Virus record (IMG/VR): IMGVR_UViG_3300031555_004454
Span: 3,916-67,915 of that record
Source of the DNA: a virus
Lineage: Duplodnaviria > Caudoviricetes
Strand: one strand, 5' to 3'
DNA length: 64,000 bases
Shown: positions 19,353-24,182 of the stretch, piece after piece
How the letters are laid out: each line of letters opens with the position of its first letter
How positions within the stretch are numbered: the first letter of the stretch is position 1
The notes under the pieces: model-generated
What the model was told of the DNA's origin: nothing
The model's database searches: none
What the model saw: only the letters and a program-made list of their open reading frames with translations
Translations under genes and position numbers: made by a program

Positions 19353-19403
19353 CAATCTGTTATCAATTTGCATATATTATGAGGAAATATAAGCAAAAAC
19401 GAC

Positions 19404-19432
19404 TTGACATATATAAAATATTGTTGTAAAAT
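19404..19432 (+). promoter_or_regulatory. SigmaA-type promoter of the intron-borne cassette
   Basis: TTGACA-17 nt-TAAAAT upstream of the plus-strand genes. Confidence 0.75.
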
Positions 19433-19451
19433 ATAACTAAAACAAAAGGCG

Positions 19452-19682
19452 GTGGTTGTATTGTCGCAGAATAATGAAAATAGAACTGAAGAAGCAGAAG
19501 TAAAGGCAGACGTCGATGAAAAAAAGATGTTAGAAAAAAAATATTGTCTGATTATGCGTATTGTTGGAATTGTAATAATAATTACAAGCATTGTGTTTAT
19601 GATATTGAACGGAATCAAAGGGTTGAATAGTACGTCTTTGCTACTTGGTGTATTTATAACCTCAGCATTTGGAATGAGATAA
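19452..19682 (+). CDS. Small two-TM membrane protein
   Basis: Acidic N-terminus followed by two hydrophobic segments; directly after promoter; exact start uncertain. Confidence 0.6.
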   Translation: MVVLSQNNENRTEEAEVKADVDEKKMLEKKYCLIMRIVGIVIIITSIVFMILNGIKGLNSTSLLLGVFITSAFGMR

Positions 19683-19721
19683 TTTCAATAAATTATATTA
19701 GGGAGATGTTACGGTACAATT

Positions 19722-20396
19722 ATGGGAGGATATGTATATAAGTATTTCGCTAAAGAATTTGCTATTCGAGCCAATGAGAATTATAACAACATATATCATC
19801 AATATGAAATAAATAAAGAGCATAGTGGGGTTTTTGAAGTAAACGCACTCATTACAGCTCTGTATGGTATAGTTGTATTACCAACAGAAGCCTATAAGGT
19901 TAAGTTCCAATGTTCTGATAAAATCGACGAGGCTTTTGTCAGAAAAATAAAGGAAAGCGAAAAGACATCTTATGAAGAATTCGAGAAGATTATTTCCGGT
20001 CTGTATTCCAGCAAAGAAAATCGAATCCGCAGTACATATGAAGATGATGGTCAGATAGTTACGCCTTTTAGATTCATCTATCATTTGCGCAACGCACTCA
20101 GCCACTCGGGAAGCAATGGTATGAATTTTATTCCTATTACAATCAATGGCTCTAAACCAGAATCGGACAAAGAGGATATTACAGATATATATTTTCACGA
20201 TGAGAGCAAATATGGTGGTAGATATCAAGAGTTCTGTGCTAAAATATCAATTGAAAATTTAATAGCAATTAAGGATTGTATCTTAGATATTGTTCTCTGT
20301 GATGAATTTTATGAAGATGAAAGTCGAAGAAGCTATAATCCTATAGATAATTATAACAAATTCCTAAAAGGAAATAAAAGAAAAGCGAGACCATAA
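19722..20396 (+). CDS. HEPN-domain putative RNase (pEK499_p136-like)
   Basis: FEVNALITALYGIVVLPTE N-terminal helix and R-x4-H motif (LRNALSHSG). Confidence 0.7.
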   Translation: MGGYVYKYFAKEFAIRANENYNNIYHQYEINKEHSGVFEVNALITALYGIVVLPTEAYKVKFQCSDKIDEAFVRKIKESEKTSYEEFEKIISGLYSSKENRIRSTYEDDGQIVTPFRFIYHLRNALSHSGSNGMNFIPITINGSKPESDKEDITDIYFHDESKYGGRYQEFCAKISIENLIAIKDCILDIVLCDEFYEDESRRSYNPIDNYNKFLKGNKRKARP

Positions 20397-20505
20397 ACCT
20401 CTTGATTTTACTTGCATATAAGAAAATAACAAAACTATCAAAAAGGCATGTGGCGCTATTTTCAAATTTGATTTTGTATAATGAATCAATCTAAGGAGAA
20501 TTGTT

Positions 20506-21925: not shown

Positions 21926-21967
21926 TGCAAAAACCTCCTAAATCTTATGATAAAAAGGGTGACGTTT

Positions 21968-22780
21968 ATGAAATCACGAATAATACCAAGTTCTTTAAAT
22001 TTGTCTGAAGATAAACTTATAAATGCGGTAAAAGTTAAATTTGCTCAATATTTGAAATTTATTGGTTGCAAGTATATTGATTTTCCAGAGAAAATTTTAT
22101 TGAAATTTTATAATGGTTTAGCTGACAAAAAGCCTTTCATTGGTCAGCTACATATCCCAAATAGCGATAATGAAAAATGTATTTTAACATTAGACCAAAT
22201 AGACTGCATTACTAATAAGAACGACGTCATATTTCACGAATTTACACATATTTTTGATTATTTGATTGTCAATAAAAATATACCTTTCGATAAACGAGTA
22301 AGCACACTTCATTATATAAGCGAAATAAGGGCTACCTACATAGAATATTGTGTTCGTTGTAATATTAAAAAATTAGACAATGATATTTTATTGCCATCAA
22401 CTACAACAGTATTCAGTAGCATTAAGTTCAAACAAATACAAATATGTGACGAAGTAATCTATTATCAAGACGCACTTATTGAACGTATCAAAAAACCAAA
22501 TGTAAGGGATGCTACGGACTATAATGATATGTTAGTTAAATTAGCTTATTATATGGGGTTTTCTTTATTCATACAAAAACATACTCACATTAAGATAAAT
22601 TCAGACGATATTATTCGGTTACTGTCAGTCAGGCTTGGTGATTCAGTAGAACGTTATTTTGCTTTAAAAGATTTGATTCCGTTAGATTTTTTGCCAATTA
22701 GCGAAGACATTTTGCATTTAGCAAAAGATACAGAAACTGTTATGAAAAATCATTATATAGACAAATTCATAACAAAGTAG
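21968..22780 (+). CDS. HExxH zinc-metallopeptidase-like protein (ImmA/IrrE-like)
   Basis: VIFHEFTHIFD motif and downstream EIRA glutamate; start reassigned to ATG 21968 after AAGGGTG. Confidence 0.6.
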   Translation: MKSRIIPSSLNLSEDKLINAVKVKFAQYLKFIGCKYIDFPEKILLKFYNGLADKKPFIGQLHIPNSDNEKCILTLDQIDCITNKNDVIFHEFTHIFDYLIVNKNIPFDKRVSTLHYISEIRATYIEYCVRCNIKKLDNDILLPSTTTVFSSIKFKQIQICDEVIYYQDALIERIKKPNVRDATDYNDMLVKLAYYMGFSLFIQKHTHIKINSDDIIRLLSVRLGDSVERYFALKDLIPLDFLPISEDILHLAKDTETVMKNHYIDKFITK

Positions 22781-22988
22781 GAACATTAGATGTTGTCTTC
22801 TCATTGAGCTTTCTTTAGTTTACTCTGCTCGCAGCTCTGCGAACCAGTCTTCCGTTTGGATATTTCTCTAATTAACGTTTCGCTATCCTACGACAAACAT
22901 CTTCAAGTAACGAAGAAAATAAAGAGAAGAAAAATAATTTTTGGCAAAGTGCAACCTTAGTGCTTGTATGCGAACATTCTTACGCAGT

Positions 22989-23291
22989 TCAATTTTCCTG
23001 ATTTTTATCAAGTTCAGCCCACTTAATCTTTAGTTTTTGAACATATTCAATGACCGACCTATCATTCTTCAACTCTGCAACGATTTCATCTACCGCTTTT
23101 AAGATTTTCGCTTTACGCACAGATGGCTCATCCGCATCTTCAAGGAAATCACTAAGTGGTTTATTATACTGTTCGGAATAGCTTATCAAATTATTCAAGC
23201 GTCTTATTACATCTTTGAGTTCTGATGTCGTGCAATTATTCTTCTTGGCACACCACTCAAAATCCCAAATTATTTCTTTTATTCTATCCAT
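22989..23291 (-). CDS. Hypothetical protein, 100 aa
   Basis: AAAGGA RBS back-to-back with DUF2513 copy 2. Confidence 0.55.
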   Translation of the reverse strand: MDRIKEIIWDFEWCAKKNNCTTSELKDVIRRLNNLISYSEQYNKPLSDFLEDADEPSVRKAKILKAVDEIVAELKNDRSVIEYVQKLKIKWAELDKNQEN

Positions 23292-23322
23292 ATTAAAAAT
23301 CCTTTCTTTTGGAGGTTGTTTT

Positions 23323-23769
23323 ATGAGACTTGTTCTTGATGCCGTCAGGGATATCCTATTGTTTATTGAACAAAATCAGGAAGCTGAATATGACTATAAC
23401 GGCGTGTTTGATATTAAGCCACTATCGGCTAAATATATAATCGAAGAGTTGGGAGACGGCAAATATTATACTAAAGAAGAAGTAGGATATGCTATAAATT
23501 TACTGTTTAATGAAGGAATAATTTCAGGCAACCCTTGTACTGGCAAAAACAATCGAATTATCAACCTACGCATTACAGGAATCAGCTTTAAAGGTCACAA
23601 ACTTTTAGATAATATCCGCAGCAATACTGTATGGGACAAAGTAAAAGAAAGAGCCGCAAGTCTTGGTGTTAAAGGACTTGATGGCTTGTGCGAAATTAGC
23701 AAAAATACAATAGAGAAAATAATAGAAGATTCCGAAATAATTCCTAATTTGCTCAGGGAATTAAGATGA
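23323..23769 (+). CDS. DUF2513-family protein (copy 2)
   Basis: MRLVLDAVRDILLFIE...ITGISFKGHKLLDNIRSNTVWDKVK; clearly paralogous to 13389..13832. Confidence 0.75.
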   Translation: MRLVLDAVRDILLFIEQNQEAEYDYNGVFDIKPLSAKYIIEELGDGKYYTKEEVGYAINLLFNEGIISGNPCTGKNNRIINLRITGISFKGHKLLDNIRSNTVWDKVKERAASLGVKGLDGLCEISKNTIEKIIEDSEIIPNLLRELR

Positions 23770-24182
23770 TTTTATTTCTGTATAAATTCCCAACATTATG
23801 ACGATAAATAATAATGTGATAACTCCGTACTACTTCCAAAAGTGTCTTTACACTTGAGCACGGACACCCGAAACGGGTGAGATTGGACTGTCTCTCAGAC
23901 GAATGTTTCGCCAACCGATTTACAGTCTCTGAACCGACCGCAGGAGCGTCCTCATCACTCCACTTTATATCCTTGCGGACTTAGCGGCTTGGCTGCTGAT
24001 TTCACATTGTATAGTTCCTCTTAGCTTTTGGCATAAGGAAGCCTATCTGTTTTTTCTGGGTTTCCCCACCGTTGCGTCTGCCTTTTCAGGCTCCGATTTG
24101 GTAGATAAGCGTTAGTGATTTCCAGCAATTTCCCGGTTTACGCATTTGCTCAATTACTTGAACAAAGGGCAATAATACTATT

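Follow-up and report, generated by a model that had tools for sequence, protein, structure and literature searches.

A candidate group I intron with a multi-gene cassette in its P9.2 loop, located within the tape-measure gene of a gut phage and its relatives

Two long open reading frames (ORFs) on the same strand of a phage contig, with several other genes between them, can be two separate genes or the parts of a single interrupted one. This question is raised by a locus in IMGVR_UViG_3300031555_004454, a 67.9-kb metagenomic virus contig of IMG/VR with an estimated completeness of ~48%, of which positions 3,916-67,915 were analysed (64,000 nucleotides, designated the window, to which all unlabelled coordinates refer). 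ORFs of 2,228 amino acids (aa; 32172..25486) and 1,802 aa (19373..13965) lie on its minus strand and are separated by 6.1 kb. The core domain of tape-measure proteins begins at the end of the former (PF10145, 60 bits; TIGR01760, 57.6 bits), and both profiles are truncated where this ORF, and exon 1 as defined below, ends. An earlier note, made from the letters of the DNA, had described the segment between positions 24182 and 19353 as a giant group I intron that is excised at the RNA level and offers a safe harbour to an accessory gene island. The present analysis supports this safe-harbour reading, RNA-level excision being its conditional part: the preferred explanation, to which we assign a probability of about 0.6, is that 24182..19353 constitutes a single group I intron, spliced in cis, in which the L9.2 loop serves as a cassette slot and the 3' splice site would be recovered by the helices P9.2 and P9.0, a pair of kissing loops and the terminal G.

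The continuity of the coding sequence is the first argument. Exon 3 (24577..24183, minus strand, as are all exons and introns of the gene) ends with ...ADGFIG, the GGT codon of the final glycine occupying 24185..24183; the DNA reads ...GATGGCTTTATAGGT up to 24183, and A24182 is the first base of the intron, which is the third of three in the gene and has a length of 4,830 nt. Exon 4 (19352..13965, stop codon included) begins with NLLTNYISNG. The proposed joining of DGFIG to NLLTNYISNG holds, as linking 24183 to 19352 keeps the frame, and when the putative intron 1 (25220..25509) and intron 2 (24578..24987) are removed as well, exon 1 (32172..25510), exon 2 (25219..24988), exon 3 and exon 4 form a single stop-free ORF of 4,225 aa. 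The predicted exon 3-exon 4 splice junction is ...TTTATAGGT/AATTTACTT and the predicted junction peptide GEAADGFIGNLLTNYISNGESIIK. Removal of the intervening sequences, as expected for group I introns, restores an uninterrupted ORF, which is collinear with relatives at all junctions. A single BLASTP alignment with locus L002, which lacks introns 1 and 2, crosses all three junctions (41% identity, 2,867 columns), and in P0045/L050, a more distant relative, the equivalents of exons 3 and 4 are one uninterrupted ORF.

The start of the 1,802-aa ORF bears on the possibility that the intron is a disabled fossil. The gene would then be permanently split into an N-terminal product ending 10 codons within the intron and a separate C-terminal protein, and the conserved intron ends would be leftovers or serve the promoter of the cargo. 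In favour of such a split, an ORF starting at ATG 19373 is called by gene-finding programs, splicing is so far a prediction from sequence, the Rfam score of the core lies under the cut-off, and pattern scans of IMG/VR have revealed no empty intron. As had been noted before, however, the downstream ORF has no ribosome-binding site (RBS) of its own: ATG 19373 is devoid of a Shine-Dalgarno sequence, whereas the neighbouring genes have strong ones (AGGAGG, AAGGAG or GGAGG), and the bases ahead of it, UUUCCUCAUAAUAU, are those of the 3' hairpin loop itself. Nor is there a conserved start, since the called starts of exon 4 in the relatives are a TTG formed by the last three intron bases, an ATG 9 nt inside the exon, or an upstream ATG at varying distance. 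Without splicing, the frame of exon 3 would stay open for only 10 codons of the intron. With the exons contiguous in P0045/L050, a separately started exon 4 protein is not favoured, and the conservation of the intron ends described below speaks against a fossil as well.

The second argument comes from related phages, which were collected via homologues of the 1,802-aa ORF and by a scan of IMG/VR and of JGI metagenomes with a 17-mer spanning P7 and P9.0. Both intron ends were recovered in 14 loci, all at the same insertion site (...GGT/A). The conserved core runs up to GGAGUUAUCA in 14/14 loci and is followed by 1.7-7.8 kb of other DNA and then by GAUAAC-AGAUU-G, which in every one of them directly adjoins the downstream reading frame. 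Between the conserved intron halves at least ten different gene sets of 1.7-7.8 kb were found, as expected for a hotspot and as anticipated by the earlier note for related phages. In a near-identical relative, 2.1 kb are swapped for another 1.66 kb, beginning exactly at 23817, and an 89%-identical relative carries a different cargo set; several homologues of the 1,802-aa ORF start with ...DNRL, the translation of GATAACAGATTG, and have differing residues after it. The intron is present in a single copy in the 67.9-kb record and occupies the same tape-measure site in every relative.

This distribution makes an assembly chimera, in which unrelated DNA had been joined between two tape-measure fragments, extremely unlikely: the window is part of a metagenomic contig of ~48% completeness, but at least 14 contigs, obtained from different samples and with different assemblers, have the same layout, and contigs of four other runs cover the boundaries. 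The layout is shared by independent assemblies of several studies, one of them a complete 142-kb genome. In this genome (G001, the record of L011; 141756-142000 and 1-4262), which has terminal repeats, the arbitrary record ends fall inside the cargo, so that the intron halves lie at opposite ends of the deposited sequence. Very improbable, too, is a developmentally excised element, i.e., removal of the cargo from the DNA before late expression, after which a compact intron or an intact gene would remain. A 7-bp inverted repeat bounds the cargo and the contig encodes a tyrosine recombinase (~62491-63000), but the bounding repeats are inverted and not direct, no recombinase is present among the 49 cargo proteins scanned, and virus-derived contigs including the complete 142-kb genome retain the cargo. 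DNA contigs of gut and faecal metagenomes contained no joint between 23817 and 19365, an absence that in contigs does not count as evidence.

The third argument is the structure of the 5' half of the intron (23817..24182, its first 366 nt), which comprises the ribozyme core from P1 to P9.1 and the 5' strand of P9.2. The core at ~23880-24182 directly after GFIG, P9.0, P9, P9.1 and the GUUAUCA/UGAUAAC pair, all named in the earlier note, were found at exactly the positions given there. The Rfam model RF00028 aligns over its full length (model 1-253) at 24192..23864 with 41.9 bits (E 5.9e-8). Introns 2 and 3 were found in the E-value mode of the Rfam search and are missed by the default search, because both score under the curated gathering cut-off of 50; for the core copy of L002, no RF00028 match was reported at E <= 1. 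An alignment of the core of 15 relatives contains 111 consensus pairs, of which 21 show compensatory changes, falling in P2, the P5 extensions, P6b, P8, P9 and P9.1 among others, and P4, P5, P6, P7 and P8 were recovered. The core helices P3-P8, with the guanosine site in P7, are thus supported by covariation in these relatives, which indicates that the core is under structural selection.

In P1 (24167..24185), the exon GGU and the first intron A pair with the guide UGCC, forming the 5' splice-site U.G pair that is characteristic of group I introns; the pairs of columns 10-13 with 24-27 (GC, GC, UG, AU) are invariant in 15/15 sequences. The loop of the P6b hairpin (23943..23961), AUGAGGA (23955..23949), and that of the 3' hairpin are complementary to each other. 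The 3' strand of P7 and the 5' strand of P9.0 (AAUCU, 23884..23880) lie within 23880..23896, an exact 17-mer common to the relatives. The hairpins P9 (23879..23865) and P9.1 (23864..23824) show compensatory changes in alignment columns 332-346 and 347-387, respectively. The 5' strand of P9.2, GUUAUCA (23817..23823), marks the end of the conserved sequence; the cargo begins after it, and the contig of a relative diverges from the window exactly after 23817. Three nucleotides separate the 5' strand of P7 from P3', P8 follows directly, and neither P7.1 nor P7.2 is present in the 15-relative alignment. A group I intron at this site would splice itself in a guanosine-dependent manner.

The fourth argument is provided by the 3' module (19394..19353, ~45 nt), which stands 4.45 kb away from the core. 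It consists of a hairpin (19370..19394) and of a segment (19353..19365) that contains the 3' strand of P9.2 (UGAUAAC, 19365..19359), the 3' strand of P9.0 (AGAUU, 19358..19354) and the terminal G19353. GUUAUCA and GAUAAC-AGAUU-G are present in all 14 relatives in which both ends are available. The mean pairwise identity of the last 12 intron bases is 0.99, compared to 0.56, 0.41 and 0.45 for the next 36 exon bases; such conservation next to a divergent exon fits an RNA signal rather than a protein N-terminus. AGAUU-G, which pairs with the AAUCU following P7, is invariant except for one change that preserves a G.U pair. Three one-sided changes were observed in the two helices, all of which are kept as G.U pairs (GUUGUCA in L006; GAUCU and GAUAAU in L047). 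When the cargo was replaced by a tetraloop, RNAalifold closed CAAUCU-[P9]-[P9.1]-GUUAUC with GAUAAC-AGAUUG. The long-range pairing postulated for P9.0 and P9.2 is therefore above chance level, with strands that recur in 14/14 relatives and a cargo-deleted fold that closes them. With respect to their behaviour in homologues, conservation and G.U-retaining changes bear out the expectation, but two-sided covariation, which had also been sought, is absent from these nearly invariant helices.

Another part of the earlier description did not stand, namely the continuation of the P9.2 helix towards the cargo (CAUUAUUAU with AUAAUAUAUG, among others). The duplex energy of the cargo-side flanks is at chance level (-13.8 +/- 2.8 kcal/mol for cognate versus -12.5 +/- 3.8 kcal/mol for non-cognate combinations), the near-identical relative mentioned above replaces the sequence right after GUUAUCA (from 23816), and the 3' partner belongs to a conserved local hairpin. 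A second long-range helix considered for L002 (AUCUAU with AUAGAU) was likewise rejected, its 3' strand being part of the conserved local hairpin.

This 3' hairpin is found in 14/14 loci, in each case a few bases upstream of GAUAAC. Its stem occurs in at least ten versions of 6-12 bp, all of them paired, while its loop, UCCUCAU in the window (19385..19379), is conserved and complementary to the P6b loop (L6b). The loop pairs fall into three classes: AUGAGGA/UCCUCAU (window, L004, L006, L007, L009, L047-L049), GAUGAGA/UCUCAUC (L002, L043) and GUGAGA/UCUCAC (L008, L037, L010, L011). Cognate loops can form 6-9 bp, compared to 4-6 bp for combinations across classes. In L011/G001, a cargo flank of the L002 type is combined with an L008-type core, and it is the core rather than the cargo that the 3' loop matches; the arrangement of these segments identifies L011 as a natural recombinant. 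There is consequently good evidence that a kissing contact between L6b and the loop of the 3' hairpin helps to dock the distant 3' module, evidence that is not overwhelming because the covariation corresponds to about two independent compensatory events. This tether and the promoter at the 3' boundary described below are features new to this analysis and go beyond the earlier note.

These observations complete the case concerning a fossil. The core displays compensatory changes and not decay, and the 3' module is the most conserved stretch of the region, with a loop that co-varies with a core loop kilobases away. Conservation of the module as an operator of the cargo does not fit either, as operators conserve the arms of an inverted repeat and not its centre, the reverse of what is seen in the 3' hairpin. 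A disabled intron and a permanently split gene are hence unlikely. According to the preferred reading of a functional cis-spliced intron, the terminal loop of P9.2 would hold 4.45 kb with five to seven genes between the core and the 3' module, and four contacts would return the distant 3' splice site to the core: P9.2 (6-7 bp), P9.0 (5 bp), the kissing loops (6-9 bp) and docking of the terminal G. The late transcript of the tail operon would extend through the cargo, and splicing would join ...ADGFIG to NLLTNYISNG.

The cassette of the window, mostly antisense to the intron, contains seven ORFs, of which five are solid and two, both small, are doubtful, together with one match to an Rfam RNA family. 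Of the earlier description as a six-gene, mostly antisense cassette without a homing endonuclease, the antisense majority and the missing endonuclease stand, while the count has to be replaced by five solid plus two doubtful ORFs. In plus-strand order, the first antisense ORF encodes a hydrophobic protein of 76 aa (19452..19682). It is followed by a 224-aa HEPN-like protein (19722..20396) with an RNALSH (Rx4H) motif and a sub-threshold match to PF18736 (24.3 bits, cut-off 26.6), and by a 381-aa protein (20506..21651) with weak similarity to the helicase-associated (HA) domain (PF03457 at 6e-4, under the cut-off), for which all structure-atlas rows are HA but with template modelling (TM) scores of only 0.28-0.34. 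The next gene (21914..22780) encodes an HExxH protein resembling zinc peptidases of the MA clan, with an HEFTH motif and a likely start at residue 19 (21968); its atlas clusters are designated "Peptidase MA-like" (TM 0.71-0.74). The minus strand carries the match to the 6A RNA (RF02925, 22799..22850; 53.7 bits, cut-off 41.2), downstream of a 100-aa gene without a family assignment (22989..23291, sense to the intron); the cargo of seven relatives yielded no such RNA match. Divergent from the 100-aa gene is a DUF2513 gene on the plus strand (23323..23769; PF10711, 6.7e-17; PHROG 585), whose ATG at 23323 is preceded by a GGAGG RBS. The pair formed by the 100-aa gene and the DUF2513 gene recurs in the P0002 contig, L006, L047 and L049. 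A second DUF2513 gene (13377-13832, plus strand, 4.5e-15) is located beside a divergent 85-aa gene (region 13102-13832) just downstream of the tape-measure stop codon, and the 30 nt upstream of the 85-aa gene almost repeat those before the 100-aa gene (..CCTCCAAAAGAAAGGA..), so that this module is present in duplicate, inside and outside the intron.

No homing endonuclease family was detected in the cargo of the window by Pfam, PADLOC, PHROGs and NCBIfam searches; PADLOC gave no match at all, and PHROGs and NCBIfam nothing useful beyond DUF2513. Among 49 cargo proteins of 10 relatives' loci, endonucleases of the LAGLIDADG, GIY-YIG, HNH, His-Cys and PD-(D/E)xK types are absent, as are transposases, the sole related match being Zn_ribbon_IS1595 (E 0.00097). 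Recurring families in this set are DUF2513 (five), HA (three) and zeta toxin (two), and a Gp49/HigB-like protein and a choline-binding protein occur once each. The cargo of L006 encodes ZorA (1.2e-27) and ZorB (1.7e-77), so that recognised defence or toxin families (ZorA/ZorB, zeta toxin, Gp49/HigB-like) are present in the relatives, as in other hotspots. L006:950-8765 is the largest cargo (7.8 kb) and contains genes for a zeta toxin, DUF2513, ZorA-like and ZorB-like proteins and a 402-aa protein, on the sense strand with a TTGACA-17-TAAAAT promoter of their own. Most relatives of the cargo proteins belong to Bacillota.

A sigma-70-type promoter (TTGACA, 17 nt, TAAAAT; 19404..19432, plus strand) detected by a consensus scan points from the 3' boundary into the cargo and is the best match within 19200-25600 (11/12 positions). 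TTGACA-17-TATAAT, an RBS and a first antisense gene were found at the same boundary in the seven relatives read by eye, and the promoter is the top match in the three loci scanned, with 12/12 positions in L002 and L006. The possibility that the conserved TGTCAA is part of a promoter on the sense strand was rejected, as a properly spaced -10 box is missing and the loci read have the antisense TTGACA-17-TATAAT. The 5' boundary often harbours an antisense or bidirectional terminator or, for sense-oriented cargo, a sense promoter. From the promoter at the conserved 3' boundary, host RNA polymerase could express the cargo separately from the tail operon.

The arrangement of promoters and terminators also admits trans-splicing, in which one RNA would carry exons 1-3 and the ribozyme half and another one the 3' module and exon 4, the two being assembled by the kissing loops, P9.2 and P9.0 (~19 bp). 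Two transcripts would fit the terminator-like sense-strand hairpin that directly follows the 5' half in relatives of the L002/L011 type. In L004, L006 and L008, transcription of the sense cargo operons from a sigma-70 promoter of their own would continue into the 3' module and exon 4, and a ribozyme in two pieces would require a tether such as the conserved loop-loop contact. Natural cases of group I trans-splicing are known in organelles. Natural back-splicing of a group I intron has also been described there (PMC6545197). Yet a conserved sense-strand promoter upstream of the 3' module is lacking, the conserved one being on the other strand, and a consensus scan found no terminator-like site on the minus (sense) strand of the window cargo. 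Moreover, the halves are always co-oriented and adjacent, as cis-splicing needs, and the intermolecular helices would be short and A+U-rich. Trans-splicing as the general mode is therefore improbable, and the narrower proposal that tether, P9.2 and P9.0 let the ribozyme act on a separately transcribed 3' module, at least in relatives with a strong terminator behind the core, is also doubtful. If true, this would be the first natural example of group I trans-splicing beyond organelles, and it would show that an essential phage gene can be divided between two transcription units on either side of a defence island.

Several points weigh against a cis-spliced intron. No RNA run is listed as containing window segment 18500-25300, and all data are metagenomic assemblies. 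The RF00028 score of 41.9 is under the gathering cut-off and thus under the threshold for membership of the family. P1 is limited to GGU/GCC plus one intron pair, and no convincing P10 was found, the candidates being weak or inconsistent by eye across the relatives. P9.0 and P9.2 are nearly invariant, which demonstrates conservation but no two-sided covariation, and the covariation of the kissing loops is limited to three classes. The L002/L011-type relatives have, 50 nt behind the core, a strong hairpin that resembles a bidirectional terminator (six G-C pairs, then AUUUUUUAUU), and a strong promoter opposes the tail transcript in the seven relatives read by eye (12/12 in the two of them that were scanned); both would hinder read-through. 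Finally, a search of IMG/VR for a cargo-free intron (GGAGTTATCA, 0-30 or 30-60 bases, GATAACAGATTG) gave no hit, which in view of the small sample is no proof of absence.

Introns 1 and 2 form the context of the cargo-bearing intron. Intron 2 is a group I intron with an Rfam alignment at 25003..24660 (36.9 bits, E 1.9e-6), and its 3' splice site lies 82 nt past the end of this alignment, behind two extra hairpins. Its borders, and with them the start of exon 3 at 24577, are independently fixed, because the DNA contig of a relative without intron 2 shows the joint (24992 to 24572): it reads ...QRAAVLESLGGK, and splicing of the window would give ...QRAKLLESLGGK. The putative intron 1 joins ...DASSAG to NALKTLSLRL in frame (SSAG/NALK), collinear with L002, which is devoid of it. 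A 5-bp P1 (CGGGU with GCCCG) can be formed and GACUGU/ACAGUC resembles P7, and the Rfam group I model gave no match in 25220-25509 even at E <= 10. In L007 (3609-4694) and L050 (7887-9068), an upstream intron contains a sense ORF of 361-393 aa with a Myb/GcrA-like DNA-binding motif, which may be an unconventional homing endonuclease. The fused exon 3-exon 4 ORF of L050 (10001-16648) translates only when TAG is read as glutamine, so this phage lineage includes stop-codon-recoded members. With ~1.5 Å of tail length per residue, the usual figure for tape-measure proteins, the unusually long product predicted for the window, with 4,225 aa and an expected mass of about 470 kDa, would imply a tail of ~0.6 µm.

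As to the biology of these phages, DNA matches to window 18500-25300 come from animal faecal and gut metagenomes, and genes for holin, amidase and GH25 lysin are present in the relatives. The tyrosine recombinase/integrase gene on the minus strand at ~62491-63000 (G000:C1:66406-66915; PF00589, 68.6 bits, 311-aa frame) makes a temperate or plasmid-prophage life style possible; expression of the cargo would then take place from the prophage. A 17-mer scan of one genome per species for a prophage or host copy yielded six chance matches and no member of the family. GenBank phages gave only short matches to intron 2, from Staphylococcus phages of the Kayvirus type, and a protein-seeded search of IMG/VR with the N-terminus of exon 4 gave no match.

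If the exons are joined as proposed, a self-splicing intron in an essential virion gene would act as a neutral bay for interchangeable accessory, toxin-antitoxin and defence cassettes, and its conserved halves could serve as homology arms by which cassettes are exchanged among related phages. Ribozyme architecture and phage or defence gene islands, usually treated in separate fields, would thereby be linked, and defence genes such as those of Zorya could sit inside a phage gene. The co-varying loop-loop tether, together with P9.2 and P9.0, could explain how a group I intron of the bacterial type reaches a 3' splice site kilobases away. The giant tape-measure genes of these ~140-kb gut phages would be mis-annotated as two to four genes, and the layout suggests a route for placing payloads inside essential phage genes without inactivating them.

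Among known elements, the IStrons (CdISt1, BcISt1 and others) are closest in layout: they consist of a 5' group I ribozyme, a cargo in a P9 extension after P9.2, an A+U-rich closing stem and a distal 3' splice site, and their insertion is harmless because splicing removes them completely (Tourasse et al. 2014, PMC4227781). As cargo they carry a sense-strand transposon, either IS200/IS605 or IS607; they have a total size of 0.5-2.6 kb, occur in many dispersed copies and possess an IA2 core with P7.1 and P7.2 (PMC4227781). The intron of the window shares with them a stem-closed cargo after the P9 sub-domains and a 3' splice site beyond it. It differs in that its family is devoid of a transposase and of the P7.1/P7.2 of an IA2-type core, and in that it is found in single copy at one fixed site in one gene. 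In further contrast to IStrons, it has a kissing-loop tether and a cargo of 1.7-7.8 kb of unrelated, mostly antisense genes with a promoter of their own.

Tape-measure genes are established hosts of group I introns, as exemplified by TMP-IVS1-3 in prophages of the Bacillus cereus group (PMC2504315) and by the Vibrio phage ICP1, whose tape-measure gene has four exons and three introns, spliced according to RNA sequencing and reverse transcription PCR, and in whose introns the ORFs differ from isolate to isolate between constant flanks (PMC10448857). The phage of the window resembles them in the host gene and in having several introns, with four exons and three introns as in ICP1. Unlike the window intron, however, TMP-IVS1-3 and the ICP1 introns are of ordinary size and either empty or equipped with one or two homing endonuclease genes on the sense strand, whereas the family described here has no endonuclease and, in the relatives, multi-gene cassettes with known defence and toxin families. 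The ND5-717 intron of hexacoral mitochondria carries many genes in its P8 loop, is up to 18-19 kb long, and is removed in an unconventional way, by back-splicing (PMC6545197). It is thus similar in having many genes in one peripheral group I loop, but it differs in its organellar location, in the use of P8 and in its fixed set of sense-strand mitochondrial housekeeping genes, which do not represent a variable accessory island.

The earlier note had regarded the locus as the best candidate for an undescribed system in the window. This view has to be narrowed, as the IStron layout (PMC4227781) and spliced tape-measure introns with variable homing-endonuclease cargo (PMC10448857) were known. For multi-gene or defence cargo in a phage group I intron, our literature search retrieved no description, nor did it retrieve one of variable, largely antisense multi-gene accessory or defence cassettes with a built-in promoter and a co-varying long-range tether in such an intron. 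The remaining comparisons concern the two halves of this combination. On the ribozyme side, the window intron resembles the sunY (nrdD) intron of phage T4 in that a remote 3' splice-junction domain lies behind an insert. The T4 intron core is completed by this remote 3' domain behind an inserted ORF; the intron comprises ~1 kb with one endonuclease gene on the sense strand, and we know of no variable multi-gene cargo reported for it. On the side of the cargo, accessory-gene hotspots of phages and satellites, for instance the defence hotspots of P2 and P4, likewise have conserved flanks and interchangeable defence or toxin cassettes with their own promoters, but these hotspots lie between genes, whereas the slot described here lies inside an essential structural gene and would be harmless only by virtue of RNA splicing.

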